This document shows positions 44,326 through 61,002 of a stretch of DNA of 64,000 nt, piece by piece. The stretch covers positions 196,875 through 260,874 of the forward strand of contig CAYQMM010000002.1 in assembly GCA_964418675.1 (NCBI GenBank), written 5' to 3'. Position 1 is the first letter of the stretch; the number at the start of each line of letters is the position of its first letter. Under the pieces are notes generated by a model, which saw only the letters and a list, made by a program, of their open reading frames with translations, was not told where the DNA came from and made no database searches. This stretch comes from an uncultured Candidatus Bathyarchaeia archaeon. Its GTDB lineage: Archaea > Thermoproteota > Bathyarchaeia > Bathyarchaeales > Bathyarchaeaceae. The position numbers and the translations under genes were made by a program.

Positions 44326-44417
44326 TCTGGACCATCAACACCCCAGAAGAAGTTAATGAATACATGAAGAAGGGCGTAGACGGCATAGCAACAGACAAAC
44401 CAGACATCTTCAAATAA
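43755..44417 (+). CDS. Glycerophosphodiester phosphodiesterase
   Basis: 220 aa with a TTG start. GHRGA, EPENTLRSF, ELDVRRTADGEVVVVHD. Confidence 0.85.
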   Translation: MLRVGHRGARAYEPENTLRSFGRAIELGVDAVELDVRRTADGEVVVVHDAKVDRVTDGRGLVGELTLEEIKGFTAEKGEKIPTLGEALDFLKGKVKVLIELKESGIEEQVVDLIRERGMVESVIVVSFLEEALGRVRELDEGVATGLIYVRYKKPVEAALELGAEYLLPLYRFTHSADVRKAHEAGLKVIVWTINTPEEVNEYMKKGVDGIATDKPDIFK

Positions 44418-44423
44418 TAAAAA

Positions 44424-44472
44424 CAGAAAAAAGCTAGTTTTCAACAATGAAGTATTATTAGGCTCCAAATAG
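44424..44472 (+). repeat. Left copy of the 48/49-bp inverted repeat (39-bp perfect core at 44428-44466)
   Basis: CAGAAAAAAGCTAGTTTTCAACAATGAAGTATTATTAGGCTCCAAATAG equals the reverse complement of 59504-59551, apart from one extra A and one A/T mismatch. Confidence 0.95.
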
Positions 44473-44509
44473 CTCATGTGAAAAGAGCTAAAAAGGTTCG
44501 TTTTTTAAA

Positions 44510-45475
44510 CTATAATATGCATTCCTGTCTTCGGATAAACAAAAAAATGCTATTGATAGCGGTTAAAGTCACAAGGAAAACCTCAATTGGGAGGTCACTA
44601 GACACATCCCAACTTTGATTATTAATTTCAGTATCCGTTGTATGTTTGAACGCATTTCTCATTTGACCGACAAATTGGATGAAACCAAGTTGTTTCTTGG
44701 TAATCTTTCCAGCTGACTTTAATCTGTTACCTATCTCTATGAAGCCTCTTGTTCTCGTTATGTTAACAGATTCATCATTTGCACATTTCTTGAGAAAGTC
44801 TTCAAAAACATCTGCCGTTTCTTTTATGCAAGAAATTGGCGCTGATTCAAACTTCATGCCAGCTGAAATGAGTTTTTCCTTTAAATCTCCTAAATATTGA
44901 ACAACTGCATCATCTAATTGATTTGCAACATAAGCCTCAATCTGCGCTTCATCATTTAGAGTGTTCTGGATTGATTTGAAAACGTTAAGTATTTCTGGTT
45001 GCTCTTTGAAAATAGGTTCAACACCTCTCTCTGTTTCTGCAAACACTTGTGAAAAACTCCCAAGTTCAAGAAGAGTATTTTTAAGAATTGTTATGCTTCC
45101 TGTAACGTTGAAAACTGTTTTGGTTTTGATTGTTGCACGGGTTACATCTTCCCCCCTGAGAATAAGACCGAAAAAGAATTTGAAAGGCTTGTATTGCATA
45201 AGCAAAAATTTCAAAATAGCTTTTTTATCATTGGCTTTCGCGTTTGAGAGCAAACGGGCAAATGGAAGTGTTGCTTTATAGAGTCCCCCATCATTTTTAA
45301 CAAGCTTAAGTTGCATTGCCATTTTTAATGCCTTTTCAGCTGTATCTGAATCAATATCGGAATATTGAACAATTTCGGGTAGCGTTGCCCTATCTCGTAA
45401 AACAATAACAGCCTCTACAACATCTAGAAGATTTCTATGGTTCACTTCAACAGCTTCATAGTTGCTGGAACTCAT
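44510..45475 (-). CDS. Hypothetical protein: N-terminal winged-helix-like region plus a C-terminal helical domain with a HEPN-type R-x4-H motif (QMRNAFKH); candidate RNase/toxin
   Basis: 321-aa ORF in an AT-rich island. ATGA overlap with the upstream ORF. Motif read directly from the translation. Confidence 0.45.
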   Translation of the reverse strand: MSSSNYEAVEVNHRNLLDVVEAVIVLRDRATLPEIVQYSDIDSDTAEKALKMAMQLKLVKNDGGLYKATLPFARLLSNAKANDKKAILKFLLMQYKPFKFFFGLILRGEDVTRATIKTKTVFNVTGSITILKNTLLELGSFSQVFAETERGVEPIFKEQPEILNVFKSIQNTLNDEAQIEAYVANQLDDAVVQYLGDLKEKLISAGMKFESAPISCIKETADVFEDFLKKCANDESVNITRTRGFIEIGNRLKSAGKITKKQLGFIQFVGQMRNAFKHTTDTEINNQSWDVSSDLPIEVFLVTLTAINSIFLFIRRQECIL

Positions 45476-46257
45476 TCCGTTGCTTCCCCACGTTTTTCAG
45501 AATGAATCAAATAGTTCCTAATCTTCCTAATAGCTTCAGCAATTTCCTGCAAGTCAGACTCTTCTGGGTGTATTGGAACCTGAAAATCCAGTCGAATCTG
45601 AATTTGCATTGGAATTTCCTTTTTTTCTAAAACTCTATATTTTTGGAGTTGTAGCTGTTTTGTTGTAACCTCGGTTCCACTCAATTTTGCTGTAACTTCT
45701 GTCCTAGGTGTCTCCCTCAGTTTCCCAGCAAGTTCAGTGGCAGTGATGTTATCACCCTCTCTTTCAACTAATTTAGAAGTAACGAGAATGTCAATTACTG
45801 CTTGTGCTCCAATGGTCGATCTTGGGTCCTTTTTTGTAACCTTTGCCCGTTTTCCAATTTCATCCCTTAACTGATAATTAGAAATACTGCCTCGGGTTTT
45901 TATCGAAAATACTAAACTTTTCAAAAATTCGTTTTCATAGATTAATGTTCTAAATGCAGAAGAAATCCCTTCCTCGTCACCGTACTCAATTGAGTAAGCT
46001 AGGTCTATGCCTTCCTTGGTTAATGAATAAGCAGTACCTTCTTTTTCTACTATGCCCATGAACTCAATAGCCTTAATATTCTGGCTAACCATTGCAGGGT
46101 GTCTTCCGATATATGTTGACACAGTCTTTGTGGAAACTGGTTGCTTCTCTGCACCAGCATTCAAGAAGCCTTTGATTATGCTTAAAAAAAGGTCATAACT
46201 CCCCCGAGGTAATTCTATCAGTTCTTCGGTTGACAATATGTCTCCCTCATTAATCAA
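45472..46257 (-). CDS. Hypothetical protein with a MarR-like winged helix (possibly two wH units); candidate regulator/partner of the HEPN-like protein
   Basis: 261-aa ORF. VSTKTVSTYIGRHPAMVSQNIKAIEFMGIVEKEGTAYSLTKEG looks like a wHTH. The C-terminus has IRKIRNYLIHS. Confidence 0.45.
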   Translation of the reverse strand: MINEGDILSTEELIELPRGSYDLFLSIIKGFLNAGAEKQPVSTKTVSTYIGRHPAMVSQNIKAIEFMGIVEKEGTAYSLTKEGIDLAYSIEYGDEEGISSAFRTLIYENEFLKSLVFSIKTRGSISNYQLRDEIGKRAKVTKKDPRSTIGAQAVIDILVTSKLVEREGDNITATELAGKLRETPRTEVTAKLSGTEVTTKQLQLQKYRVLEKKEIPMQIQIRLDFQVPIHPEESDLQEIAEAIRKIRNYLIHSEKRGEATE

Positions 46258-46489
46258 TGCATAGCATGTCTTTAATTCTGCTCTTTAGTGTTTCGGTGTA
46301 ATTATATTGATTCATTCGAAACTTTTTTGTTGGATGCATGAACCCTGCCTTGAAGTTTTAGCTATTACTTAATTAGCGAGATCATTACTTTCCTTGTTTA
46401 TTGTGACGTAATAGAAAGTAGCGGGGAAAAGGCGAGAGTATCAGAAAAATGAAGAAACTACATAATTTCATATCTGTAGAACTGTGTTG

Positions 46490-47701
46490 TTACCAGATTG
46501 TTATTTTTCCTTTGATTAGTTGTTGGCAGAAGTTTTCTATGTTTGCCAGTTCAGCGTCTATCACGTCGATTATCCGCTTCTCCACACTCTTCTCCAACGC
46601 GCCGCCACCATCCATAACCACCTGAGCCGCAGCAATCGCAGGCTGATCAATCGGCTTACCAATCCGACTCAACAACCAAACACAAACCTCAGCCGCCTCA
46701 GGCACCTCATCACAAACCCGCCGAGCAATCCTATGACTCAAAGCATTGTAAATCTTCCCCACATGACTAACCGGATTCTTCCCAGCCGCAGCCTCAGTCC
46801 CAATCGGACGATTCAAAGAAATAACACCATTCACCTTATTCCCCCGCCCCACCTGACCAGAATCCGCACCATCCGCACTCGTACCCAAAACAGTCAAATA
46901 CACACCATCCACACCCCGACCCTCAACATCCAAAGTATTCAAACTCACAAAATGCTTCTCAAAACGCCCCTTCCCCTCAACAAACTTGCGGACGTCCTCC
47001 AGCATCGCCGCCTTCTTCTCCATATAATCCCGCTCGCCAGATACAAACCTGTCAACAAAAGCCATAGCGATAGTTAAGTCAAGGCATTCCCCATACCTGA
47101 AACCCATAACCTTCACATCCTCCCCAGCCGCAGGAAACCGATCCTTAAACCCTTTCGAATTCACGTACCTCTCAGTCTCCAAAACCGTATTCTCAACCCT
47201 ACTCAAAGGAGCATAACCCACAGCCGCACTAGTATCATTAGCACCAAACATACACACCTTCCTCCTGAAAATGTCAGTAAGCCCCTGACTACCCGGCTTC
47301 AACTCCACCTGATACCTCATATGCACATCAGGATCAACAAACCGCAAATTCTTCTTCAACCAATCCTTAGCCGTCTCAACAGCAATCTCCCCCACAGGAA
47401 TCTTCTTCCCATCAGCCTCAAAAGTCGCCCGATCACCAAAAATAAGAAGCATTGGCTCATTCACAACACCCCCACCAAACCGGCACTCAACCTCACCCGC
47501 AACCAACAACGACTTATCAGCATTATGATGCAAAATCGCCCCAAACTCATCCAAATACGCCTTACTCAAACCCACAGAAACCTGATCCATAATCGCATCA
47601 CACATAGAATCAGGATGCCCAACACCCTTCCGCTCAACAATCTCAATCTGCTGCTTCTCAAGAGGAATCCGCCTCGAACCAGACACCATAATATTCCGCA
47701 T
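46490..47701 (-). CDS. metK: Archaeal-type S-adenosylmethionine synthetase
   Basis: The ORF track starts at 47728. The internal ATG 47701 gives MRNIMVSG...IEIVERKGVGHPDSMCDAI, the canonical archaeal MAT N-terminus. Confidence 0.88.
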   Translation of the reverse strand: MRNIMVSGSRRIPLEKQQIEIVERKGVGHPDSMCDAIMDQVSVGLSKAYLDEFGAILHHNADKSLLVAGEVECRFGGGVVNEPMLLIFGDRATFEADGKKIPVGEIAVETAKDWLKKNLRFVDPDVHMRYQVELKPGSQGLTDIFRRKVCMFGANDTSAAVGYAPLSRVENTVLETERYVNSKGFKDRFPAAGEDVKVMGFRYGECLDLTIAMAFVDRFVSGERDYMEKKAAMLEDVRKFVEGKGRFEKHFVSLNTLDVEGRGVDGVYLTVLGTSADGADSGQVGRGNKVNGVISLNRPIGTEAAAGKNPVSHVGKIYNALSHRIARRVCDEVPEAAEVCVWLLSRIGKPIDQPAIAAAQVVMDGGGALEKSVEKRIIDVIDAELANIENFCQQLIKGKITIW

Positions 47702-49380
47702 AGAAACACCTTGCCGAATGGCTAACACAAATAATTCATATATACCTTACGATACAACGAGCACCAAAACCCAACACACAACACCTATTCCATCTCGCAC
47801 CACCAAAACTTTTCCACCCCCAATTTTTGCCATAAAATTGTAGCAAACATTGATAAACAAGACCACTCCATACTGCAAAATATGCTAGAACATTTAAAAG
47901 AAGCCTGCGGAGTCTTCGGAGCACAAGACCACCAAAACAAACCCATATTCCCCTACATCTACTGGGGACTACGCGCCCAAAACCACCGCGGACACCAATC
48001 CCACGGCTTCCTCACCTACGACAGCGGAGCATTCCACAGCCACAAAGGACTAGACCTAGTCCCAAAAATAAGAAACGAAGAAATCAACGAATGGCTCACA
48101 AAACTCCCCGGACCAACCGGACTAGGACACGTAAGATACAGCACCTCAGGCGGAACCGACCAACAATCCCTCGTAAAAAGCACCCAACCCATCCTAGAAA
48201 CATACGGAACCAAACAAATCGCCCTAGCCTTCAACGGCAACGTCGTCAACACCCCCCAAATAATCCAAGAAATAAGAGAAGACTACCCCAACTTCCGCTT
48301 CAACTACGACGCAGAACTAATCTCCAGAAAACTCCTAAGACTCGGAAAAAAAGACGACCTAGCCTCATCCATCAAAAGATGCATGAAAGAAATCGAAGGC
48401 GCCTTCTCCGTAGCAGGAATAACCGAAAAAGGAGAACTCTTCGCCTTCAAAGACCCACGCGGAATAAGACCCCTATGCTGCGGCTGCAGCAGAGACAGAA
48501 AAACTTGCGTAGTCTCATCAGAAACCGTGGGCCTAGACATAAACGACTTCCAACTAGATTTTGAAATAAACCCCGGAGAACTCGTAACCGCCACAAAAGA
48601 CGGATTCAACCGGGAACAACTGGTAAACGGAGAAAAAAAGGCATTATGCGCCTTCGAATTCGCCTACTTCTCCAGACCAGACTCAAAACTAGGAGACAAG
48701 CACGTTTACGAAGTAAGAGAAGAATTCGGAAGAAACTTCGCTTGGGAATACCCAGAAACCACCAGCAAAGTAGACATAATCCTATCCATGCCCGAAACAG
48801 GCAACGACGCCGCCTTCGGATTCCACGAACTAACACGCATAAGATGGGAAAGAGCCTCAAGAAGACACAGATACGTAGCAGAAAGAGCCTTCATCCTCCT
48901 ACCCGAAGAACGATACACAACAATAAACAGAAAAATCAACATCGTCGACCACAAACTAATCGGAAAAAACGTCGCAGTAGTAGATGACAGCATCGTCAGA
49001 GGCGACACCACCAAAGTCGTAGTGAAAAAACTCCGCGAAATGGGCGCAAAAAAAATCTACCTCTTCATCACCTTCCCCCGAATAATAGGCCCCTGCTTCT
49101 ACGGAGTCGACATGGCAACCTACCGAGAACTCATAGGATCACGATACGAACCCGAAGAGATAGCAGAGATAGTGGGCGCCGACGCCGTAAACTACCAATC
49201 AGTAGAAGGACTTGTCAAAGCCACCGGCATGAACAAAGACGAACTATGCCTAGGATGCATCACAGGCAAATATCCCACGCCCATGGCACAGAGACTGGCA
49301 GACGAAATGAAAGAAAGATTCGCGAACGGCTACAACGAACAAGGAAGAATATACGAGACTGCCATCAACTAACCCAGAAT
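46570..49380. other. Tract with an A+C-rich plus strand (G- and T-depleted) spanning most of metK (minus strand), the divergent intergenic region and all of purF (plus strand)
   Basis: Hand counts: 47401-47460 A19 C19 G8 T14; 48091-48150 A20 C20 G13 T7. 37 of the first 40 purF codons end in A or C. The intergenic stretch 47729-47881 has only about 10 G. Confidence 0.8.
47882..49372 (+). CDS. purF: Amidophosphoribosyltransferase
   Basis: 496 aa. Propeptide then CGVFG. Ntn-amidotransferase and PRTase (VVDDSIVRGDT) motifs. Confidence 0.9.
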   Translation: MLEHLKEACGVFGAQDHQNKPIFPYIYWGLRAQNHRGHQSHGFLTYDSGAFHSHKGLDLVPKIRNEEINEWLTKLPGPTGLGHVRYSTSGGTDQQSLVKSTQPILETYGTKQIALAFNGNVVNTPQIIQEIREDYPNFRFNYDAELISRKLLRLGKKDDLASSIKRCMKEIEGAFSVAGITEKGELFAFKDPRGIRPLCCGCSRDRKTCVVSSETVGLDINDFQLDFEINPGELVTATKDGFNREQLVNGEKKALCAFEFAYFSRPDSKLGDKHVYEVREEFGRNFAWEYPETTSKVDIILSMPETGNDAAFGFHELTRIRWERASRRHRYVAERAFILLPEERYTTINRKINIVDHKLIGKNVAVVDDSIVRGDTTKVVVKKLREMGAKKIYLFITFPRIIGPCFYGVDMATYRELIGSRYEPEEIAEIVGADAVNYQSVEGLVKATGMNKDELCLGCITGKYPTPMAQRLADEMKERFANGYNEQGRIYETAIN

Positions 49381-49394
49381 GCGGGTGACCCCGG

Positions 49395-50804
49395 ATGGAA
49401 AAAGTTGGCATCCTAGTGGTTTCGTACGGCTCAAGAGCAGTTGCCATGATAGACACTTTCCTCCGCAGCGAAGAATACGCCCCAGAAATCTACGTTGTGG
49501 ACAAACAGAAAAACCCCTTCAACGTAAAACGGGCTGAGAGACACATTGTTATTTCTGACTTCAATTTAAAGGAAATTGTGAGGTTCGCCAAAAGGCACGA
49601 AGACAGAATAGACTTTGGGATAGTTGGCCCTGAAAAGCCCATCATTGCTGGCGTGCGAGACCTCGTCGAGAAGGAAACACGTATACCAATGATATGCCCC
49701 ACCAAGAGATATGCCATCGAAGGCAGCAAGGTGGCTCAGCGGCAGCTGTTCCAGAGGGTTGCCCCCGAAGTAAACCCGAAATTCAAGGTTTTTGACCCGA
49801 AGGATTACGGCAGCGTGGGGCATGTTAAGAAGAGCGTTTACGCTTGGCTTAAAGAACTCAACAACGAGGTGGCGGTGAAGCCTGACAGAGCAACTGCTGG
49901 AAAGGGGGTCGGCGTTTGGGGTGACCATTTCAGCACTCGCGAAGAGGTTTTCGAGCATTTTCTCTCCAACTACCAGTATGGTCCAGTGATAATTGAGGAG
50001 AAAGTTGAGGGAGAAGAGTCCAGTTTCCAAACGTTCTGCGATGGAAAGCGTTTGGTTCCCTTGCCTGAGACCCGTGACTACAAGAGAGCCTTTGATGGCG
50101 ATAAGGGTCCAAACACTGGGGGGATGGGTTCCTACAAAGACTCCGGAGATATTCTTCCATTCATGAATTCAAGGGATAGGGAGAAAGAAATTGAACTTGT
50201 TAACAGGGTTTTCAGGGAACTGAAGGGAAAAGGAAGCAATCCCGAGTTGCGAGGCATCCCCTTCTACTCCGCCTTCATCCACACCAGCAAAGGACCAAAA
50301 ATCTTGGAGAATAACAGTCGACCCGGAGACCCAGAGATAATGAACCTTCTTCCCGTCCTGAAGGACGACTTCGTTGAGTTTTGCTATAAAATGTTGGATG
50401 GAAACCTGAGGAAGGTCGATTTTAGGGGGATGGCGACTGTTGTGACCTACAAGGTTCCGCCCAGCTACGGTGGCTACTCAACAGAGTTTCCTGAACGAGT
50501 GGAGAAGAATGAAGTAGATACTCCTGTAGATTTGTCGGGAGCACAAAAACTGGTTGAGAAAGAGGGGGAGAGAATAAGGGTTTATCCGGGGTCTTTGGAG
50601 TTGAGGGATAGAGAGAATTTTGCCCTTGGGTCTCGTGCCGTCTGTGTCGTCGGCATTGGAGATGACATTCAGGAGGCTAGGGAAAGCTCCTTGGAGGGCA
50701 TAGGGGCGATTAAAGGCGGAGCTCTTTGGAACAGAGATGATATTGCCGCAGCAGAACATATTAAGAAAAGCGTGCGACACATGGAAAAGCTGAGGAGGCG
50801 CTGA
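49395..50804 (+). CDS. purD: Phosphoribosylamine-glycine ligase
   Basis: 469 aa. ATP-grasp features (GKGVGVWG, GPNTGGMGSY, ENNSRPGDPE). Confidence 0.88.
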   Translation: MEKVGILVVSYGSRAVAMIDTFLRSEEYAPEIYVVDKQKNPFNVKRAERHIVISDFNLKEIVRFAKRHEDRIDFGIVGPEKPIIAGVRDLVEKETRIPMICPTKRYAIEGSKVAQRQLFQRVAPEVNPKFKVFDPKDYGSVGHVKKSVYAWLKELNNEVAVKPDRATAGKGVGVWGDHFSTREEVFEHFLSNYQYGPVIIEEKVEGEESSFQTFCDGKRLVPLPETRDYKRAFDGDKGPNTGGMGSYKDSGDILPFMNSRDREKEIELVNRVFRELKGKGSNPELRGIPFYSAFIHTSKGPKILENNSRPGDPEIMNLLPVLKDDFVEFCYKMLDGNLRKVDFRGMATVVTYKVPPSYGGYSTEFPERVEKNEVDTPVDLSGAQKLVEKEGERIRVYPGSLELRDRENFALGSRAVCVVGIGDDIQEARESSLEGIGAIKGGALWNRDDIAAAEHIKKSVRHMEKLRRR

Positions 50805-51910
50805 TGGCACCAGAAGCGTCGCAAAAGAATTCCAGAATTTTCGTTACGGATTGTGAGGGTCCTATTTCGAAGAATGACAATGCCTTCGAGTTGACGAGCA
50901 GCTTTGTTCCCAAGGGAGACCGCTTCTTTGCTTTGGTGAGTAAATATGATGATGTTCTAGCGGATGTTGTCAAAAAGCCCGGATACAAGGCTGGGGACAC
51001 TCTGCGATTGATTCTTCCCTTCCTGAAGGCTTATGGAGCAAGCGATGAGAAGATGAGAGATTACTCTTCCAGAAACGTTCTTCTGGTTCCCGGCGCCCGG
51101 GACATGCTCCAATTTGTGAAGAAGCTGATGCCATCCTTTATTGTCAGCACCAGCTACGAGCAGTATATCTCTTCCTTGTGCCAGCTAACTGGTTTTCCAT
51201 TCGGCAACGCCTACTGCACCCGCCTGAACATCGACAAGTATGGTATCAGCGAGGAAGAGGTGAAGAGGCTCCAAAAGCTTGGGGAGGAGATAGCGGCTAT
51301 GCCCATGATTGAAATCCCAGAAAACAGCCGCTCTATCCAAGATTTTTACCCGAGAGACCAAGCAACAATAGAGCGATTAGATGAGATATTCTGGGAAATA
51401 ATTCCAAGAATGGAATCCGGCAGAATGCTGAGGGAGGTTAATCCTGTTGGCGGGTCAGAGAAGGCGAAGGCTGTGCAGGATATTGTTGAGAAGTTAGGTA
51501 GCAGCCTTGACAGGGTAATGTATGCGGGCGACAGCATCACAGACGTCCCGCCATTAAGGTTAGTTAGAGAAAATGGGGGATTAACGGTCTCTTTCAATGG
51601 GAACGATTATGCGGTACGAGAGGCTGAAGTTGCCGTGCTTTCAGGCAACACAATAGTGACATCTGTTCTCGCAGAATCCTTCAGCAGATTAGGCAAGAAT
51701 CAGATACTGAAGTTGATTGAAGAGTGGACCCCCTCAGGACTGAAAAAGTATTGTGTTAATTCAGCGTTACAAGAGCGGATGTTGGCGTTGTATCCCGATG
51801 GCTTTCCTCAAGTTGAAGAGATAAATGCTAACAATATGGAGAGACTGAAAAGGGAAAGCAGTATCTTTAGGAAGAGTGTGAGAGGAGAGGCTATAGGAAA
51901 GTTAGGATAA
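50804..51910 (+). CDS. HAD-fold protein of unknown function, with D-x-E in place of D-x-D in motif I
   Basis: 368 aa. Motifs FVTDCEGPIS, IVSTSYEQ, GGSEKAKA, AGDSITDV. 1-nt overlap (TGATG) with purD. Confidence 0.6.
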   Translation: MAPEASQKNSRIFVTDCEGPISKNDNAFELTSSFVPKGDRFFALVSKYDDVLADVVKKPGYKAGDTLRLILPFLKAYGASDEKMRDYSSRNVLLVPGARDMLQFVKKLMPSFIVSTSYEQYISSLCQLTGFPFGNAYCTRLNIDKYGISEEEVKRLQKLGEEIAAMPMIEIPENSRSIQDFYPRDQATIERLDEIFWEIIPRMESGRMLREVNPVGGSEKAKAVQDIVEKLGSSLDRVMYAGDSITDVPPLRLVRENGGLTVSFNGNDYAVREAEVAVLSGNTIVTSVLAESFSRLGKNQILKLIEEWTPSGLKKYCVNSALQERMLALYPDGFPQVEEINANNMERLKRESSIFRKSVRGEAIGKLG

Positions 51911-51928
51911 GCATATGACAGTGATTCC

Positions 51929-52834
51929 ATGAAGGCAGAAATCGAAGACACCTATGCAGAAGCTTTCGACGGATTATACGCAAGAGTCATCGTCACCGCA
52001 GACCACAAAGAAGTGCTAAAGAGAGCCGCAGAAGACGCCACAGCAACACCCTCCATAGTCATCGGCAGAATCGAGGGCGGCATCGAAAAATATCTAAACA
52101 CAAAGGAAACACCAGATGGACGCAGCGGCGCCCTTCTACAATTCTGGGGAGGCATCAACGAAACCAAGCCTCTAGAGGAAGATGTGAAAAAGTTTGAGAA
52201 AGAGCTCTCATATCGAATACGGCAGGACATCCTCGTGAAGCCCTTCACTGCCCTCTTTGACTTCCTGCCGAAACCGGATGGAAAGATTGGGATGATGGAG
52301 AGGGTTGGTCACTGCGGAGACGGTTTCGAATGGACAGAAAAACGTTACGGACGAAACATGATAATCATCCCCCTCATGGTCTCTAACTTTTTGATAGAAA
52401 GTAAACTGGGCTATGCCAAAGGAGTAATGGGAGCAAACTTCTGGTATATGTGCAAAACCAAGCAGGCAGTTATGGAAGCGGGAAGAAGAGCGCTGGATGC
52501 CATCCACCAAATTTCAGAGGTCATAACTCCCTTTGATGTCTGCTCAGCAGGGTCAAAACCCGAGACGAAATTTCCATCTATCGGTCCCACAACCAATCAT
52601 CCATACTGTCCTACCCTGAAGGAAAAATTAGGAAAAAAGTCAAAGGTTCCGGAAGGCGTGAAGTACATTCCGGAGATAGTGATCAACGGCACCTCCCTTG
52701 AAGCTGTGAAGAAGGCTATGCGAGTCGGTATCCAAAGTGCCTGCAACGTGGAGGGGGTCGTTAGGATTTCAGCGGGAAATTATGGGGGAAAACTTGGCAG
52801 GCACAGAATAGCCCTGCGGGAGCTGTTTCCATGA
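51929..52834 (+). CDS. ftr: Formylmethanofuran:tetrahydromethanopterin formyltransferase family (Ftr/FhcD-like)
   Basis: 301 aa. [10 protein letters not shown]-terminus and C-terminal [24 protein letters not shown]...[14 protein letters not shown], as I recall from Ftr proteins. Confidence 0.75.
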
Positions 52835-53733
52835 AGTTCCAGGTTGTAGGCTTCGGCGCCCTCAACTTGGACAAGCTGTACAAGGTGAACATGATTGCCA
52901 AAGAAGAGGAGGAGGGCTTCGTCACGGGCTTCAAGGAATCCGCTGGCGGCTCAGCAGCCAACACCGTTGTGGGCTTGGCTAGGCTGGGGCTGAAAACGGG
53001 TTTCATAGGGAAGGTTGCCGCAGACCATGAAGGTAACTTTCTCCTTGAAGACTTCAGAACCGAGGGGGTTGACACCGACGGCATAACGGTTTCTGAAGAG
53101 GGCAGAAGCGGCGTGGTTATGGGATTCATCGATATAAAGGGAGACAGAGCCTTGTACGTTGACCCCGGCGTCAACAACCTGACAGAATTTAGCGACATCA
53201 ACTTGGATTACGTGGCTAACACCGAATTTCTGCATCTATCATCTTTTGTTGGAGACAAACCCCTGAAAGCCCAAAAACAACTCATAGAACAGCTTTCCGA
53301 TATCAAGATAAGTTTCGACCCCGGCGCCCTCTACGCAAGAAAAGGCTTGAGAGCACTAAGACCAGTAATCAAAAGATGTTATGTCATGTTTCCCAATGCC
53401 ATAGAAACGAAAATGCTTACAGGACGGGACTATGAGGAAGGCGCCAAAACCTTCACAAAATTAGGCGCTGAAATCGTTGCAGTTAAGCTCGGCAGGAAGG
53501 GCTGCTACGTCACTGACGGAAAGGAGAACCATCTGGTTGAGGCTTACAAGGTGGACGCGGTAGATACAACTGGCGCTGGCGACGCTTTCTGTGCAGGCTT
53601 TCTCTACGGTTTAATCAAGGGAAAAGACTTGGTTGAGTGCGGAAGGCTGGGAAACTTTGTTGCATCCCGTTGCGTAGCAAAGATGGGCGCCAGAACCGGA
53701 TTGCCTAGATTAGAAGACCTGAAAGACCTCTAG
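52831..53733 (+). CDS. PfkB/ribokinase-family sugar or nucleoside kinase
   Basis: 300 aa. GGSAANT and [16 protein letters not shown] motifs. ATGA overlap with ftr. Confidence 0.8.
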
Positions 53734-53738
53734 AAACC

Positions 53739-54557
53739 TCAGAAACGTTTCTTCAGATATTCGACCATGGATTCGAAAACTAGTTTTCCATCGCCATACT
53801 CTGGCATGTTTTCTGTTTTGGTCCAGTCAGGGAGTTGCCAACCGTAAAAGGCTCGTTCTGGATGTGGCATCAAACCAAAAATGGTTCCTGTGGGGTCGCA
53901 GATGCCCGCGATGTCGTGGAAGGCACCGTTAGGATTCACTGGATATTTGCCCTCTGCATACTCGCCCATTTGGTTGCAGTACCTGAAGACAAGCTGGTCA
54001 TTATCATACAACTTCTCCAGATACCTGTTCTCCTTCTCCTTTGAAAAGAGGAACCGCCCTTCGCCATGAGCCACCGGTATCCGCAGCACCTTTCCTTTCG
54101 GAATTTTTTGTGTGAAGAGGCACTTGCCAGAATTTTCATGCTTAACATAGACCCACCGGCAATTATAGCCAATGGGAATGTTAGTTGCTAATGCTGCCTC
54201 AGGATACTCGCTAACTCCTTCGTAGGCAGGTAGCAAGCCTGCTTCAACCAGAACCTGAAAACCGTTGCAAATTCCCAAGATAGGTCTTCCCTCATCAACG
54301 AACGTTTCAAGTTCGCTACGAAGTTTTGTCAGGGTTCCCTTGGCTAAGATGGCTCCAGCCCGCACGTAATCGCCGTAGGAGAATCCACCAGGAAAAACAA
54401 GGGCATTATAGTCTAGGAGATTGGCATTTTTCACTACCTCGTTAAGATGAACGACCTCCGCCTTGACTCCCACTTCGTCTAAGGCTCTCTTGGTCTCTGC
54501 GTCACAGTTTGTTCCGCCCACCCTCATGACGCAGACGCGAACATCCCCTATTTTCAC
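53739..54557 (-). CDS. purQ: FGAM synthase, glutaminase subunit
   Basis: The ORF track extends to 54629, which overlaps purL. GTG 54557 (MKIGDVRVCVMRVGGTNCD) begins 1 nt after the purL TAG stop. ICNGFQVL catalytic Cys and MPHPER. Confidence 0.85.
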   Translation of the reverse strand: MKIGDVRVCVMRVGGTNCDAETKRALDEVGVKAEVVHLNEVVKNANLLDYNALVFPGGFSYGDYVRAGAILAKGTLTKLRSELETFVDEGRPILGICNGFQVLVEAGLLPAYEGVSEYPEAALATNIPIGYNCRWVYVKHENSGKCLFTQKIPKGKVLRIPVAHGEGRFLFSKEKENRYLEKLYDNDQLVFRYCNQMGEYAEGKYPVNPNGAFHDIAGICDPTGTIFGLMPHPERAFYGWQLPDWTKTENMPEYGDGKLVFESMVEYLKKRF

Positions 54558-54558
54558 A

Positions 54559-56934
54559 CTATTGCCCTCCCAACGTGCTCTTCCAGCGTCTCCGCAACTC
54601 AGGCAACCCGGCACAAACAACGTTTTCACCCTTCAACCCATAAACCGAAAGACTGCCCTCTTTCTTGACTCTGCCAATTTCTGTGCAATCGCCGCCTTTC
54701 ATCAGGGCTTCGAAGTCTTCTCTGCGCTTTTCTGTGACTTCCACAAGGAATCTGCTGTTTGATTCCGAGAAGAGAAGAAAATCGTTTCTACTGATTTTAT
54801 TGGTTCTTGGAACATTCTTGAGGTGCAGTTCCGCACCGTATCCGCTACTGAAAGACATCTCCGCCGAAGCAACAACCAAACCTCCATCAGAAAGGTCGTG
54901 GCATGACCTTACATAGCCGGAGTCAATGGCTTTCGTCACCAAATCCATCGTTTTCTTAGCTTGGTCAATCCTCACTCTCGGAACTGCCCTTCCAGTGTAG
55001 CCCTTGAGTTGATAGTATCGAGAGCCTCCTAGCTCGGCGTAGGTTTTGCCGACCAGGTAGATGAGGTTTCCCGGCTGCTTCAACTCCATGGAAACTGCCT
55101 TTCGTATGTCGGGGATTACTCCAACTGCTGTGATTAAGAGCGTTGGGGTAACCGGTCCCAGAGGAGATTCGTTGTAGAGGCTGTCTTTTCCCGAAATGAA
55201 GGGGGTCTGGAAGCCCTTGGCGAAGTCGTAGCAGGCTCTGCAGGCTCTCACCAGAGACCCCAGCCTATCAGGCTTTTCCGGGTTTCCCCAAGTGAAGTTG
55301 TCGAGTAGTGCAGCTCTTCTTCCGCCAACGGCAGTGTTGTTTCTCAGCGCCTCGTCGATGCTGGAAGCTGCCATCCAGTAGGGGTCAATCTTCCCATAAT
55401 TTGGGTTCATTCCACAGGAGATAACGACTCCCCGCCAAGAATCTGACAATGGTTTTATGACAGCGGCATCGTTTGGTCCGCCGTACTTGCTTTGGAGGGG
55501 CTTTAGAGCGGTGTTTCCTTTCACTTCATGGTCGTAGGTTCTTACCACCGATTCCTTGCTGGCGATGCTGAGTAAAGAGAGGAGCTTGAAAACTTCATCT
55601 GTTAGGTCCTTTGGTTCTGGGAAACTGTGCTCTTCGTGGTTGGGTTCTTGCCACTCAGCGGTGCTTCTGACTTTTGGGGGGTTGAACATGAAGTCTATGT
55701 CTAGCTCTGCGACTCTCTGCCCCAGATAATCAACTTTGAGGACTCCGTCATCAGTGAATTTGCCTATGGGCGTGGCTTCGACGTTTTCGGTTTCAAAAAT
55801 TTCCAGAGCCCTTCTGAGATTCTTTTCTGGAACTGATAGGAGCATTCTCTCTTGTGATTCGGAGATGTAGATTTCCCAAGGAGCCAAGCCCGGATATTTC
55901 AGCGGAATCCTGTCGAGGTCTACGTGAATTCCGCAGTTGGACCGGTCAGCCATTTCTCCAGTAGCGCAGGAGATTCCGCCGCCGCCTATGTCGGTTATGG
56001 CAGAGCCTAAGCCTTCGTCTCTCAGTTTTATGATGGCTCGCTTGACTTTCTCCTCCACTATGGGGTTCGCAATCTGAACTGCGGGTCTTGAAACCTCTTC
56101 AGACTCCTTGGTTAATTCTGCCGAGGCGAAGGTTACGCCGTGGATTCCGTCTCTTCCCGTCTCTCCGCCCACAAGAAGGGCAATGTCTCCTGGTTTCGTG
56201 GCTTTCGCGAACTTGTTTTTTGGGAGAATTCCTATGCAGCCGCAGTAGACTACTACGTTGCCGACGTAGCTTTCGTCGAAGTGTATGGCTCCGTTGACTG
56301 TGGGTATTCCCATGTTGTTTCCGTAGTTTCCTATGCCCGCGACGACCCCCCTGTAAACGTATTTTGGATGTTTTGTTCCGGCTGGAAGCTTACTGTAATC
56401 ATAGTCTAATGGACCGAAGCATAGGACGTCGGTGCAGGCTATGGGGTCAGCCCAGACGCCCAGTATGTCTCGTATGACGCCTCCTGTTCCTGTGGCTGCT
56501 CCTCCGAAAGGCTCTATGGCAGAGGGGTGATTGTGGGTTTCAACCTTAGCTGCGATGACATTGTTTCCTTCAAACTCTATTATTCCCGCGTTGTCTTCGA
56601 AGACCGAAACGCACCAAGAAGGATTAAGCTCCTTTGTTGCTTTGGCGATGTATGTTTTGAAGAGGCTCTTGATTTCGCCCTCGGGTGTTGTTATGTCGCC
56701 TTTGAAGGTTTTGTGGTAGCAATGTTCAGACCATGTTTGACCTATGGTTTGAAGCTCCACATCCGTGGGGTTTCTTTTCTTTCTGGAAAAGTAGTTTCTA
56801 ACAGCCTTCATCTCAGTTAGGTTCAAGCCGATTCCTAGTTCTCTGCTGATTTGGAGCAGTTGCTTGTTATCTGCGTCGTGCAGGTTTATTTCTACAAGTT
56901 CGTAGGGTACACCTCTCTTGACGTAACGGCTCAT
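54559..56934 (-). CDS. purL: FGAM synthase II (large subunit)
   Basis: The ORF track extends to 56997. ATG 56934 (MSRYVKRGVPYELVEINL) overlaps the purS stop (ATGA). SEHCYHKTF, ETHNHPSAIEPFGGAATG. Confidence 0.9.
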   Translation of the reverse strand: MSRYVKRGVPYELVEINLHDADNKQLLQISRELGIGLNLTEMKAVRNYFSRKKRNPTDVELQTIGQTWSEHCYHKTFKGDITTPEGEIKSLFKTYIAKATKELNPSWCVSVFEDNAGIIEFEGNNVIAAKVETHNHPSAIEPFGGAATGTGGVIRDILGVWADPIACTDVLCFGPLDYDYSKLPAGTKHPKYVYRGVVAGIGNYGNNMGIPTVNGAIHFDESYVGNVVVYCGCIGILPKNKFAKATKPGDIALLVGGETGRDGIHGVTFASAELTKESEEVSRPAVQIANPIVEEKVKRAIIKLRDEGLGSAITDIGGGGISCATGEMADRSNCGIHVDLDRIPLKYPGLAPWEIYISESQERMLLSVPEKNLRRALEIFETENVEATPIGKFTDDGVLKVDYLGQRVAELDIDFMFNPPKVRSTAEWQEPNHEEHSFPEPKDLTDEVFKLLSLLSIASKESVVRTYDHEVKGNTALKPLQSKYGGPNDAAVIKPLSDSWRGVVISCGMNPNYGKIDPYWMAASSIDEALRNNTAVGGRRAALLDNFTWGNPEKPDRLGSLVRACRACYDFAKGFQTPFISGKDSLYNESPLGPVTPTLLITAVGVIPDIRKAVSMELKQPGNLIYLVGKTYAELGGSRYYQLKGYTGRAVPRVRIDQAKKTMDLVTKAIDSGYVRSCHDLSDGGLVVASAEMSFSSGYGAELHLKNVPRTNKISRNDFLLFSESNSRFLVEVTEKRREDFEALMKGGDCTEIGRVKKEGSLSVYGLKGENVVCAGLPELRRRWKSTLGGQ

Positions 56935-57182
56935 TTTGCTTCCTCGATTTCGTAGCTGTAGTCGTCTTTGGTTGGGTTGGCAAGGAGCCGTCTGCACATC
57001 TCCTCCACCGCTTTCTCTGCTTCTTCTCTGGAGTCTGCTTCAAAAATAACCGTGTAGACCTTGCTTACACCGACGCTTTTTACGGAGTACTTCAGTTCCC
57101 TGAGGGATTGGGCTGTCATTTCTCCTTCGGAGTCTGAATGCCCCGGCTTGAGACCAACTTCGATTCTTGCGCGATACATCAT
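56931..57182 (-). CDS. purS: FGAM synthase PurS subunit
   Basis: 83 aa. RARIEVGLKPGHSDSEGE pattern typical of PurS. Confidence 0.8.
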   Translation of the reverse strand: MMYRARIEVGLKPGHSDSEGEMTAQSLRELKYSVKSVGVSKVYTVIFEADSREEAEKAVEEMCRRLLANPTKDDYSYEIEEAK

Positions 57183-57251
57183 ATGGTTGTAAGTGAAAAT
57201 ACAAAATTTAAATGTTATCTAGATGAAAATTTAAGTAAACAGTTAAACCTG

Positions 57252-58337
57252 TTACCTCAACTCCAGCTTTCTCCCATTGTAATGGGCAACAATTTTCTCT
57301 GAAGCGGTTACATTTCCGATTCGCTCAGCTTCAACTCCACTTTTCTCAAAGACAGAAATCACGTCATCTTCGTCGTTTTTGTCCACAACAACGGCGAATC
57401 CCCATCCCATGTTGAAGGCTTTCAGCATCTCCTCGTCTGTTATCATGCCTTTAACCTCAGGGGCTGTCTTCTGAATCAACTCGAAGACCAGTTGAGGCTT
57501 AAAATTGGTGAATTCGAAGCCTACTCCTTTAGAGAATTTCATGAGTCGGTTGAACTTCAGGTAAGCGTCCCCTGTAACGTGAACTGCGCCCTTTATCTCC
57601 GCCTCTTTGGTTGCGTTCAGGAAAGGTTTAACGTATATTCTTGTGGGTTCCAAGACCTCGTAGATGATTTCTCTTGTGAAACCGTCTGGGATGTCGTTGG
57701 GCTCGTATTTGCCGCCCCACTCCTTGAAGAGAACTTTTCTCGCCAGGGATATCCCGTTGCTGTGAACTCCTGAGCTTCTTAAACCCACAACAGTGTCGCC
57801 CGGTTTGATTTTGTTTCCAAAGATAATGTCCTTTTCACACACTTCTCCTACGCTGGCGATTATCATGTCGAAGCCCCTTCCCGTTTTTATTCCTTTTATG
57901 AGGTCTGCTACGTCTCCTATCTCTCCTCCGGGTACTGAACAGGCTGCTTCGGTAGCGCCTTCAGCTATGCCCTTCATCCACTCCCTCACCAGGTCAGGGT
58001 CAGAGACCTGAGCGTGGATGTTGTCAACCAAGGCTAGGGGCGTGGCGCCGGACCTTATCACGTCGTTGACTGCCATGGCAACTCCGTCTATTCCGATGGT
58101 GTCGTACTTGTCTGCTAGCTGCGCCAAGAGGACTTTAGTTCCAACTCCTTCGATGACAAGGTCTAAGTATCTGTCTCCGATGGAGAAGATGTTGCCGTAG
58201 GGCAGTTGGACAACTTTTCCATATCTGCCTAGGTTGTAGGTTTGTTTCAGGGTTGAGAGAGCTTCCTTGGATTTTGCTCTCGTTTCTCTATCAACACCAG
58301 CTTCGGTATATGTGAACTTCTTTGGCAATGTTTTCAC
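57252..58337 (-). CDS. purM: Phosphoribosylformylglycinamidine cyclo-ligase (AIR synthetase)
   Basis: 361 aa. YTEAGVD, DLVIEGVGTK, DGVAMAVNDV. Confidence 0.9.
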   Translation of the reverse strand: MKTLPKKFTYTEAGVDRETRAKSKEALSTLKQTYNLGRYGKVVQLPYGNIFSIGDRYLDLVIEGVGTKVLLAQLADKYDTIGIDGVAMAVNDVIRSGATPLALVDNIHAQVSDPDLVREWMKGIAEGATEAACSVPGGEIGDVADLIKGIKTGRGFDMIIASVGEVCEKDIIFGNKIKPGDTVVGLRSSGVHSNGISLARKVLFKEWGGKYEPNDIPDGFTREIIYEVLEPTRIYVKPFLNATKEAEIKGAVHVTGDAYLKFNRLMKFSKGVGFEFTNFKPQLVFELIQKTAPEVKGMITDEEMLKAFNMGWGFAVVVDKNDEDDVISVFEKSGVEAERIGNVTASEKIVAHYNGRKLELR

Positions 58338-58445
58338 ATCTGTTCATTGGCGAATTTTTCTTATAAGTTACGCTGGTCCCTGCAAGGGAGGGTTAGCCAG
58401 CTTTTTTGTGAAGTTAAGTTAGCATCACAAGGTTTATATGGGTAT

Positions 58446-58482
58446 GTTATATATATCTAACATGAAGTTATAGATATATAAC
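58446..58482. promoter_or_regulatory. Two 16-bp near-palindromic boxes (GTTATATATATCTAAC / GTTATAGATATATAAC) with a 21-bp period, upstream of the membrane-protein/XRE operon
   Basis: Read directly. Each box is close to its own reverse complement. Located in the 254-bp purM / membrane-gene divergent region. Confidence 0.45.
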
Positions 58483-58591
58483 TTAATGTTGGAAATAATT
58501 AATGGAGATGGAGACCGATGAATAAAACTTTGAAACTGAGAAAACGGAAAAAAACGGCACACATCCTCAATCACCAAAGGGAGGAAACAAA

Positions 58592-58927
58592 ATGAACAAC
58601 ATAGAATGGCCCATCACAATGATCCTCATAGGGCTCATCGCGGTGCTATTTGCCATCATTCTAGTCTGGAAAACTGCCCAGCAGAGAAAATCTGGTCTCC
58701 CCTCTAAGGATGAGCGAACTGAACGAATCAAAGGCAAGGCTGCTCTAGGAGCCTTTTGGATTGGCTACGTTTTCATGGTTATGCAGTTGCTTGGGATAAT
58801 AATCGGGCAGGAGTTTCTGGGTTTCCCCGAGCCAGAAGCAGGATGGATGATTATCGCCGTCATGTTGGTGTCCAGCATTTCCTTTGGCATATTAAATTGG
58901 TACTACGGCAGAAAAGGAGACTTCTGA
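58592..58927 (+). CDS. Small membrane protein (resembles the DUF2178 family that pairs with XRE regulators)
   Basis: 111 aa, four hydrophobic segments, [16 protein letters not shown] loop, AGGGAGG SD upstream. Confidence 0.6.
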
Positions 58928-59157
58928 TGAAGTTCATAACGAGAATCAAAGAATTAAGGGCAAGATATGACTTGACGCAGGAGGACCTAGCAAAAGCGGT
59001 GGGGGTAAGAAGAGAGACCATACTCTACTTGGAGAAAGGGAAATATAATCCATCATTGAGCCTAGCCCACGATGTGGCTAATGCCTTAAAGACTACAATA
59101 GACGAGCTATTCATCTTCGAGGACCAAGAAGAATTTAACAATTATTCCCAAAGATAA
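58927..59157 (+). CDS. XRE-family helix-turn-helix regulator
   Basis: The ORF track begins at 58756. ATG 58927 overlaps the upstream TGA (TGATG). [41 protein letters not shown] is a classic XRE HTH. Confidence 0.8.
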
Positions 59158-59170
59158 GGAAGAGGCAAAC

Positions 59171-59305
59171 ATGAGTCTCGACCTTTTGGACATTGTGATA
59201 ATCGCAACAGGAGCACTAACAGGTGTAATAGCTTTAGCCATACTACGGCTGAGAGTAGAGCACGTGAAAAAAAGGAATACAAAAAACACAACTCCTTTCT
59301 TCTAA
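59171..59305 (+). CDS. 44-aa single-TM peptide
   Basis: Below the ORF-track length cutoff. Hand translation gives MSLDLLDIVIIATGALTGVIALAILRLRVEHVKKRNTKNTTPFF. Its stop overlaps the next ATG (TAATG). Confidence 0.4.
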   Translation: MSLDLLDIVIIATGALTGVIALAILRLRVEHVKKRNTKNTTPFF

Positions 59306-59490
59306 TGGGCGGAACTTGGTTCACGGTTGGATTGATTCTAGGAGCCTTTTACAGAAGAACAGGCGTTTTTGATTCACCACTTCTCAGTTTAGGACTGATA
59401 TTCTTATTCGCGGATATTGGTGTGATACTGAATACCTTAAACGCTAGAATGATCAGGAATACCCAAATATCAAGACTAGACGGATTTTAG
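59305..59490 (+). CDS. 61-aa two-TM peptide
   Basis: ORF-track entry. Hydrophobic. Translationally coupled to the previous ORF. Confidence 0.4.
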   Translation: MGGTWFTVGLILGAFYRRTGVFDSPLLSLGLIFLFADIGVILNTLNARMIRNTQISRLDGF

Positions 59491-59503
59491 GGTAGAAGCC
59501 GTT

Positions 59504-59551
59504 CTATTAGGAGCCTAATAATACTTCATTGTTGAAAACTAGCTTTTTCTG
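59504..59551 (-). repeat. Right copy of the 48/49-bp inverted repeat (39-bp perfect core at 59510-59548)
   Basis: The reverse complement reads CAGAAAAAGCTAGTTTTCAACAATGAAGTATTATTAGGCTCCTAATAG. Confidence 0.95.
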
Positions 59552-59571
59552 GAAAAACAGGCTGACGGGCT

Positions 59572-61002
59572 TTATGTGACTAGTTTCACGCTTTCGGCGA
59601 CGGTTTCAGCTCTTTTCAGGTTGTTGAGGAGAACCTGGAATCGGTAGGAGCTTTTGGCGATTTTAGCCAACTGTTTCACGATGTAGTCTGGGCGAATGAA
59701 GAATCTCTGGTAACCTTCATGGATCATCTCTTCAATCTCTTCGCAGGGTACAGCGTCCGGCGAGACTTCAGGCACCAGAACCCCGGTTTCCCAGTGTTTC
59801 TCTTCATCCAAGAAGCCCTGCATCTTCAGTTCCTCCCAGATGTCTGTTCCCGGAAAAGTGGCTAGAATGTTGAATTGGGGGATGTCCACCTGCAGCTTCC
59901 GCACATACTTTAGGGTGTTCTGGATTTCTCTTCTTGTTTCGTGGGGAGCCCCCAAAATAAAGGATGCAACAATCACATCTATCCCTGCCCTCCTAGCTTT
60001 TCGAACAGCATCGACTGCCTGTTGCGGGGTCGTCCGTTTATCGTAATAATCTAGAACCTTCTGGCTGGCGTTTTCGATTCCAAAATACATCATTTTACAG
60101 TTTGCCCTAGCCATCTCCTGTAGCATATCTTGGGGACAATGGTCAACTCTGCCTTCAGCAAAAAATTCCACCCCCACCCTCTCTTTCCTCAGCCTACGGC
60201 ATATCTTGATGACTCTTTTCGGGTTCAAAGTGAAGTTGTCATCCACAAAAAGAAACTGTTTGTAACCCTGACTGGAGAGAAGATGCAGCTCCTCAACTAT
60301 ATTCTCCACTGACCTAGACCGCCACAGGTCTCGAGCCAATCTTCTGCATCCACAAAAACGACATTGAAAAACGCAGCCTCTGGAGGAGACGAAGCTACTG
60401 AATTTTTTCGGGGCAACAACTATGCCAGCGGTCGTGTTGTGGTATTCTACGTCCAGCAATTCCCTGTCGGGGAACGGTAGGGAGTCAATATCCTTGATTA
60501 GGGGTCTATCAGGAGTTGAAATTATCTGACCATCATTTCTGAAGTTGATTCCCAAAACTTTCTTCAGCTCTCCCTTCTTCTCAAGGCACTTTGCCAGTTC
60601 GAGGCTGGTGTATTCTCCTTCTCCCCGAACAATCACATCCACAAAAGGATATTTCTTCAAGATTCTCTCAGCGTTGAAGGTGGCATAGAAATTGCCGAGA
60701 ACAGTGATGATGTCCGGGTTCTCCCTCTTCACTCTCTCCGCGATAAGTGCTGCTTTGCGTCCTGAACTGCTGCAGGTGGAGAAGCCTAGGATATCCGGGT
60801 TCTCTTTCTTCACCCAGTCAACTGTGCCCTTCAGGGAGTAGCCCTGTGTTGCCTCGTCTATGATGGAGACATCTATTCCGTTTTCTCTGAGGTAGGTTGC
60901 TATGTAAAGCATGCCGAGGGGAGGGGCTGCCCCCACCATCTTCCTAACATCTTCGATGGGAAGCTCAGGATTTGGACCCGGATTTATGAACGAGAACTTC
61001 AT
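59572..61002 (-). CDS. B12-binding-domain radical SAM protein (class B)
   Basis: 476 aa. N-terminal cobalamin-binding-like Rossmann domain. SSRGCVFQCRFCG (Cx3Cx2C). Confidence 0.8.
   Translation of the reverse strand: MKFSFINPGPNPELPIEDVRKMVGAAPPLGMLYIATYLRENGIDVSIIDEATQGYSLKGTVDWVKKENPDILGFSTCSSSGRKAALIAERVKRENPDIITVLGNFYATFNAERILKKYPFVDVIVRGEGEYTSLELAKCLEKKGELKKVLGINFRNDGQIISTPDRPLIKDIDSLPFPDRELLDVEYHNTTAGIVVAPKKFSSFVSSRGCVFQCRFCGCRRLARDLWRSRSVENIVEELHLLSSQGYKQFLFVDDNFTLNPKRVIKICRRLRKERVGVEFFAEGRVDHCPQDMLQEMARANCKMMYFGIENASQKVLDYYDKRTTPQQAVDAVRKARRAGIDVIVASFILGAPHETRREIQNTLKYVRKLQVDIPQFNILATFPGTDIWEELKMQGFLDEEKHWETGVLVPEVSPDAVPCEEIEEMIHEGYQRFFIRPDYIVKQLAKIAKSSYRFQVLLNNLKRAETVAESVKLVT

Follow-up and report, generated by a model that had tools for sequence, protein, structure and literature searches.

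A genus-wide family of non-palindromic intergenic repeats over-represented at gene-order breakpoints in a Candidatus Bathyarchaeia genome

Two copies of a short intergenic repeat face each other across 15 kb in a 64,000-nt stretch of DNA (hereafter the window) from an uncultured Candidatus Bathyarchaeia archaeon (contig CAYQMM010000002.1, forward-strand positions 196,875 to 260,874, assembly GCA_964418675.1). The genome carries archaeal marker genes (archaeal AdoMet synthetase, Ftr and TiaS), its MetK is 86% identical to that of CP070820.1, and it belongs with Candidatus Bathyarchaeum. A repeat search of the window returned inverted arms at 44428-44472 and 59504-59548, which are 45 nt long, 98% complementary and spaced by 15,031 nt; all remaining inverted pairs of the window were shorter and 70-88% complementary, which makes this pair the best by far. 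Direct reading bore out what the first-pass annotation had described, namely an inverted repeat bracketing 15 kb, perfect over a core of 39 nt. The A-run of the left copy is longer by one A, there is a single A/T mismatch, and each copy is placed between convergent gene ends. The left copy reads CAGAAAAAAGCTAG...CTCCAAATAG, and the right copy, compared as its reverse complement, reads CCAGAAAAAGCTAG...CTCCTAATAG.

On the left, the convergent ends belong to a GDPD gene and an unannotated open reading frame (ORF) of 321 aa (44510-45475, minus strand). The 5' end of the repeat is located 7 nt past the GDPD stop and its 3' end 37 nt from the stop of the ORF. On the right, they belong to a 61-aa ORF (59305-59490, plus strand) and a B12-binding radical-SAM gene (rSAM); here, the 5' end of the repeat lies approximately 20 nt past the radical-SAM stop (59572), and its 3' side points toward a cassette with an XRE-type regulator gene. 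Both accessory cassettes are positioned 3' of their repeat copy, and the accessory genes on both sides read into the repeat strand bearing GCTTTTT(T)C, so that the earlier observation of outward-reading operons running into one and the same T5-T6-ending sequence also held. Neither protein of the left island (321 aa and 261 aa) matched any entry of Pfam, NCBIfam or PADLOC. As first noted, no transposase or integrase was found. There is no target-site duplication at the window copies either, and the flanks of the two copies have no sequence in common. The features of the locus are collected in Table 1.

The two arms are members of a large dispersed family. A 35-nt core pattern gave seven exact or near matches in the source assembly (2.04 Mb), and a short-word BLAST of the genome returned many further partial matches. 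An iterated nhmmer profile recovered 62 copies with a threshold of E<1e-6, rising to 70 with E<0.1, and none of them is inside a long ORF. A sequence-only covariance model (R1) found 68 copies in the source genome; of the 24 species of the genus, 23 were matched, with copy numbers of 3-113, and two further families of the order had 2-7 copies. The repeat is therefore not specific to the 15-kb segment. The first-pass annotation had named occurrence at dozens of intergenic sites as a result that would speak against its reading, and dozens of such sites are what both searches returned. The family consensus is approximately 51 bp long and non-palindromic, TCAGGAAAAAGCCTGTTTTCAACAAT-N6-TGTTATTAGGCTCCAAATATG, also written tttTCAGGAAAAAGCCTGTTTTCAACAAT-N6-TGTKATTAGGCTCCAAATATG, with sharp edges and dissimilar flanks. 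Its ends, CAGGAAAAAG... and ...CCAAATATG, are mutually non-complementary, and there is hence no terminal inverted repeat; the flanks of the aligned copies contain no target duplication. No description of a dispersed family of this kind, similar to REP (repetitive extragenic palindromic) elements, was found for Bathyarchaeia in the literature searched, and the family is an undescribed, genus-wide, non-palindromic and intergenic one.

Copies share a mean identity of 79%, and uninterrupted matches between them are short. The window pair is 95.7% identical over a 46-nt core, and such similarity recurs within the family: 23 of 1596 copy pairs reach an identity of at least 95%, and 24 of 57 copies have a partner at this level. 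Both window copies fall into a seven-member variant with the centre ATGAAGTATT. The geometry of the pair is equally common, since 19 of 48 neighbouring copies (about 40%) lie no more than 15.1 kb apart, compared with 37% expected at random, and 12 of these 19 pairs are inverted as well. A chance origin of the window pair is excluded only because both arms belong to a family of 62-68 members. Probably, the arms are independent members of this family, and nothing links either arm to the other or to the 15 kb in between. As a bracket, the pair is ordinary and owes its geometry to two dispersed copies being oppositely oriented by chance; it is the family that matters more.

For gene order, the genome was compared with G041, the closest complete relative, for which the full chromosome is available (1024 reciprocal best hits with a mean amino acid identity of 82.6%). 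The family is strongly over-represented at gene-order breakpoints between the two: a repeat is present in 50 of 233 broken adjacencies and in 13 of 772 conserved ones (odds ratio 16, p=1.5e-22). Counted by interval, 50 of the 63 repeat-bearing intervals were broken vs 183 of the 942 others. With the comparison restricted to spacers of 90-1500 nt, 21 of 29 spacers with a repeat were broken (72%) and 91 of 403 without one (23%, p=7e-8), and the trend was the same within the tandem, convergent and divergent classes. The matching junctions in G041 also carry the repeat, on at least one side for 36 of the 50 repeat-bearing breaks and on both sides for 16, relative to a baseline of 5.4% per interval. 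The orientation of the repeat to both flanking genes was kept in 10 of 12 clean triads, which is the pattern expected for exchange between aligned repeats. We propose that the repeats probably serve as short sites of recombination or breakage, where blocks of the chromosome are exchanged and cassettes taken up; as recombination substrates in this general sense, the family is strongly supported.

Where adjacencies are conserved, the orientation was kept in 8 of 10 shared repeats, and a gain or loss was found at 6 of 16 sites. From species to species, copies have kept their loci, while the spacers around them are fully diverged; filled and empty orthologous spacers are too diverged to align for exact insertion boundaries. 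One of three sites among the syntenic spacers that are occupied in G041 only (locus L111, G041:119968-120109) holds two copies in tandem with a 92-nt period, and the corresponding spacer of the source genome has no copy.

The right copy is located at a break of this kind, the purM/rSAM synteny break. Six of nine relatives carry a repeat that is located upstream of purM and directed into it, with four different genes on the far side (C11_2490 in G041 and G046, C11_57665 in G044 and G045, C2_193863 in G042 and C5_131237 in G050). A repeat directly 3' of the radical-SAM gene is present in G041, G043 and, weakly, in G047. In G041, the purM/repeat junction at 590.7 kb and the repeat/rSAM-TiaS junction at 490.6 kb are 100 kb apart, and purM stands next to TiaS in none of ten relatives. 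The source genome carries a lineage-specific fusion, radical-SAM→repeat→purM, of loci that are separate in relatives. Between the 3' end of the right copy and purM lies the XRE cassette of 1.15 kb, where relatives have only 136-175 nt and no cassette; another, unrelated cassette occupies the same purM-repeat place in G050.

At the left site, the gene order propeller-orf218-ECF-NADK-GDPD / metK-purF-purD-HAD-Ftr-PfkB-purQ-purL-purM is identical here and in the two closest relatives, and for the pur-metK block, collinearity extends to at least 17 relatives. A forward-orientation repeat is found directly 3' of the metK stop in 9-10 relatives, some of which share locus-specific centre variants across species. 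The source genome has no such metK-adjacent forward repeat and carries the flipped left copy and the 2-kb island in its place; similarity to locus L009 ends approximately 8 nt past the metK stop. At locus L008, which equals G041 here, the order is metK-repeat-GDPD without an island (repeat at L008:11257-11299, corresponding to G041:578648-578690). Compared with this repeat, the left copy has the opposite orientation and belongs to another variant. L009 holds a different two-gene island at the metK/GDPD site (L009:9321-10686; 263 aa and 207 aa), which is also 3' of the repeat, with the cassette junction approximately 25-30 nt past it. This island has no homology to that of the window, and its proteins have no family match. 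The 263-aa protein contains an R-N-x-x-x-x-x-H-like string (RNKRNIGH).

These comparisons bear on three earlier ideas about the pair. That the 15-kb block was inverted, with the two copies as the substrates or scars of the event, is very improbable. The arms are inverted, 45 nt long and 98% identical, and family members are associated with rearrangements; however, the two closest relatives have the block, together with its left flank, in collinear order, and no relative shows inverted junctions. The change at the right junction is of the translocation type, with purM joined to rSAM-TiaS, unlike the junctions of an inversion, and with the proportion of inverted neighbours given above, the geometry is expected by chance. 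The gene-order comparison called for by the first-pass annotation returned the collinear orientation only, and its inversion proposal is not supported for the block, while the part on recombination substrates is strongly supported for the family and for the right copy. Even less credence can be given to the suggestion that an old composite transposon or integrated element covers the 15 kb and has the repeats as its termini, which is rejected. It would account for the inverted identical ends, but the segment contains metK and the purine pathway and is syntenic in at least 17 relatives, it comes with no transposase, integrase, target duplication or terminal inverted repeat, and the ends are members of a family present more than 60 times.

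The third idea, a 3' terminator or untranslated-region module that travels with the cassettes so that each brought its own copy, has more in its favour and is still unlikely. Both cassettes converge on the CTTTTT(T)C strand, the two window copies are of the same sequence variant, the left copy, itself flipped, is of another variant than the repeat resident in L008 and L009, and the layout of a repeat with two converging genes recurs in L009 in opposite orientation. Against it, the L009 island adjoins a repeat of the resident variant, the right copy resembles the rSAM-side repeat resident in G041 over its whole length, and relatives without cassettes already have the repeat at both sites; the right copy is therefore resident and not cassette-borne. 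There is also no general drop in GC on the 3' side of the repeat, and the core pattern was not found in viral contigs. What remains of the earlier proposal is the shared oligo-T strand under both cassettes. For the left copy alone, an arrival with the island could have taken place, given its flipped orientation and its difference from the resident variant. Two related candidates were rejected: an attachment site of viruses or plasmids, with 0 matches of the core pattern in viral contigs, and a systematic placement of foreign DNA 3' of the repeat, as GC is symmetric between the two sides.

Table 1. Features of the repeat-bracketed locus (window coordinates).
Feature	Position	Strand	Remarks
G+T-rich tract	42500..44400	+ strand composition	keto skew +0.4 to +0.5; ends at left copy
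GDPD gene	43755..44417	+	PF03009, E 2.8e-42; stop abuts 5' end of left copy
Left copy, ~51-bp repeat	44424..44472	+	family-consensus orientation, variant ...CAACAATGAAGTATTATTAG...
Two-gene accessory island, 321 aa + 261 aa	44510..46257	-	AT-rich, GC 0.35-0.38; 3' of left copy
Archaeal metK	46490..47728	-	
A+C-rich mirror tract	46500..49400	+ strand composition	keto skew -0.2 to -0.38; starts just past island
purM	57252..58337	-	
XRE-HTH / small membrane ORF cassette	58592..59490	+	between purM and 3' side of right copy
Right copy, ~51-bp repeat	59504..59552	-	same sequence variant as left copy, opposite orientation
B12-binding radical-SAM gene	59572..61002	-	stop abuts 5' end of right copy

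Throughout the source genome, copies follow gene or tRNA 3' ends by 5-40 nt. The median distance to a gene 3' end is 30-38 nt, with copies on both sides and in both orientations, and gene starts that face a copy are at least approximately 70 nt away; 54 of 62 copies face at least one gene 3' end. This includes tRNA genes, 8-10 of 44 having a copy just downstream, 9-41 nt past their 3' end. Examples of tRNA-linked copies are C1:312279-312424, C1:170038-170194, C7:92632-92797 and C2:192821-192980 of the source genome. Some other copies abut tRNA-like 3' ends (tggtgcggggg...) without an ARAGORN call, which may be intron-bearing tRNAs.

The motif CTTTTTC is conserved to at least 90% on the reverse-complement strand. 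For genes that run into the reverse complement of the repeat, its internal T5 is the first T5 past the stop in 13 of 18 cases. We infer that the reverse-strand CTTTTTC may act as an oligo-T transcription stop, also for both accessory cassettes. A T5-T6 run a few tens of nucleotides past the stop is what the repeat has in common with archaeal oligo-T terminators. Ordinary terminators of this type differ in that they are not embedded in 50 nt of conserved sequence, and the repeat has its T5 on one strand only.

Several other roles for the repeat at gene ends were rejected. A structured RNA is not indicated: RNAalifold found no consensus structure for the family, the one plausible stem was 82% paired with weak covariation, and neither strand paired consistently. 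Folding z-scores were -0.6 and -1.4 for the consensus and between +0.1 and +0.9 for the window copies, none of them significant. An Rfam search of the whole window gave no match at gathering score, and the left copy gave chance-level matches only (E 2.7-8.6). A small peptide starting at the terminal ATG of the repeat was dismissed as well, as the ORFs are unconserved, have a median of 15 codons and are no longer than those of another frame. The same applies to a promoter of the downstream gene, the distance to gene starts being variable and at least 68 nt, with many copies located between convergent genes. Most copies are followed by a G+T-rich, low-complexity tail of approximately 50 nt past their 3' end, with a mean keto skew of +0.31 in the first 25 nt. 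This tail, which had prompted the peptide idea and is not a conserved ORF, often begins with ATTGYTG and finishes in a T-run (e.g., C7:67924-67973 and C4:100257-100300 of the source genome), and it is absent at both window copies, where the cassettes abut the repeat.

On a larger scale, the left copy and the island stand between the two tracts of opposite strand composition listed in Table 1, in which the keto skew reaches +0.52 on the G+T-rich side and -0.38 on the A+C-rich side. In the island-free GDPD/metK spacer of G041, the repeat is the exact pivot, with a skew of +0.41 up to 578.5 kb and of -0.39 from 578.75 kb. Genome-wide, the mirrored asymmetry (u-d) was 0.063 for repeat-bearing spacers vs 0.010 for others in the source genome (p=6e-5) and 0.094 vs 0.011 in G041 (p=3e-6), with the same polarity as the tracts of the left site and a weaker amplitude. 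Coding-strand bias was rejected as the cause, since it has a mean of -0.029 and would give the opposite sign. A kilobase-scale keto skew that would depend on how the repeat is oriented was rejected too: u-d is flip-invariant, u+d was not significant, and what is real is confined to the mirrored component, which is independent of orientation.

Such mirror tracts form at least six pairs, in which the plus strand is rich in G+T to the left and in A+C to the right, with absolute skews of 0.3-0.5 over 1-3 kb (C4:58501-63750, C8:103501-110250, C16:3501-8250, C17:8251-17000, C2:275251-279500 and 42500-49400 of the window). Each pair is centred on an AT-rich accessory island of 1.5-4 kb, among them one with type I restriction-modification genes (C17) and one with a TIR-like start (C8); the G041 site that matches the C8 pair is empty.

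Deamination of single-stranded DNA is established chemistry, and the polarity of the tracts would be as expected if a break at the site underwent 5' resection and the 3' strands left behind were then deaminated. A stronger version of our proposal can be formulated on this basis, in which a dedicated activity of this Bathyarchaeia genus, either break-making or site-specific recombination, would recognise the repeat; block shuffling with one repeat per junction, cassette hot spots on the 3' side and mirror tracts made by repeated resection would then have a common origin. This version is speculative and rather doubtful. The strongest of the other mirrored pairs centre on AT-rich accessory islands without a repeat, and the link between repeat and skew is consequently an association and not a proof of cause.

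The proposal that blocks are exchanged and cassettes taken up at the repeats has to be weighed against several points. The link to breakpoints could partly reflect a shared preference for operon boundaries or variable regions, although the controls for spacer length and gene-orientation class were passed. An identity of 79% with short matches makes a poor substrate for ordinary homologous recombination; the exchange may be driven by homology or catalysed at a recognition site. No chimeric 5'/3' parental pattern was found in recombinant copies, for which divergence and indels limit the mapping. At the left copy, the adjacency is conserved and the repeat flipped, for which repeat-by-repeat exchange alone is insufficient. 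With regards to termination, the forward strand has a T4 only, which makes two-way termination doubtful, and a role in termination, like any recombination at the present day, is an inference from the sequence.

For better comparison, the family was set against known short repeats. Bacterial REP sequences and the elements built from them (BIME and REPIN, the latter mobilised by RAYT Y1 transposases) are similar in being tens of base pairs long, high in copy number, strictly intergenic and found near gene 3' ends in both orientations. They also persist vertically within a lineage and have been linked to termination or mRNA 3' ends as well as to rearrangements of the chromosome. REP sequences differ as GC-rich imperfect palindromes, usually with a GTAG/CGTC end and a co-occurring RAYT gene, whereas the Bathyarchaeia repeat is AT-rich and archaeal, has no significant hairpin and occurs mostly singly instead of in inverted doublets. 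A search for RAYT (Y1/IS200-type, PF01797) gave 0 matches in the 92.75%-complete genome, while control genomes were matched. Membership in the REP/RAYT group was rejected for the lack of a hairpin and of a PF01797 gene; the high-copy, extragenic placement at 3' ends does fit.

The enterobacterial repetitive intergenic consensus (ERIC) and Correia (NEMIS) elements of Neisseria are likewise conserved dispersed repeats, which are co-transcribed with adjacent genes, can supply terminators or promoters and mark variable regions. They differ in their length of 100-150 bp and their terminal inverted repeats, to which Correia elements add a TA target duplication and a site for integration host factor; none of these is present here. 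Miniature inverted-repeat transposable elements (MITEs) of archaea (SM1-SM4 of Sulfolobus and the haloarchaeal ones) are also non-coding repeats dispersed in an archaeal chromosome. However, they measure 80-350 bp, have the inverted ends of a partner insertion sequence and generate target duplications, and neither such ends nor duplications were found in this family. The core sites of tyrosine recombinases and the attC/attI sites of integrons resemble the repeat in their conserved blocks around a variable centre (here AACA-N6-TGTT). With them, too, unrelated cassettes pile up beside the site, and block exchange leaves one site per junction. In contrast, the dyad of the repeat measures only 4 bp, and no cassette at the studied loci is flanked by two sites. 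No recombinase was identified, and no recombinase gene was found adjacent to the repeat. The likeness lies in the way in which such sites work, and the repeat is at most a candidate member.

A purely selfish element similar to MITEs or REPINs, without host function, which is tolerated in spacers at gene ends only and whose link to breakpoints is a by-product of dispersed homology, is an improbable explanation of the family as a whole. It would agree with the range of copy numbers among the species of the genus, with the discrete sequence variants or subfamilies, with the gains and losses at syntenic repeat-bearing spacers and with the tandem pair in G041. The family has no terminal inverted repeat, target duplication or hairpin, and the genome no Y1 transposase, all of which speak against such an element. 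Furthermore, orthologous copies keep their position, orientation and locus-specific variants while the spacers around them have become unalignable, which indicates a long residence under constraint.

The significance of the family is that it predicts breaks of gene order between species and coincides with strand-asymmetric mutation tracts and cassette hot spots. The repeat thus offers a sequence handle on rearrangement and on the uptake of accessory genes in an abundant and barely cultivated group of archaea. For metagenome assembly and binning, it is also a warning, as such repeats will break or mis-join contigs. Strand-biased tracts will in addition mislead ORF callers through stop-free artefact ORFs. 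An example is found antisense to metK at L009:7952-9154 (minus strand), where a stop-free ORF of 400 aa was observed; it is an artefact of the extreme strand bias, since stop codons are missing from a strand that is poor in G and T. Elsewhere in the window, a 30-bp tandem duplication (40817-40876, 83% identical) was noted in the Pro/Thr/Glu linker of the 894-aa propeller protein.

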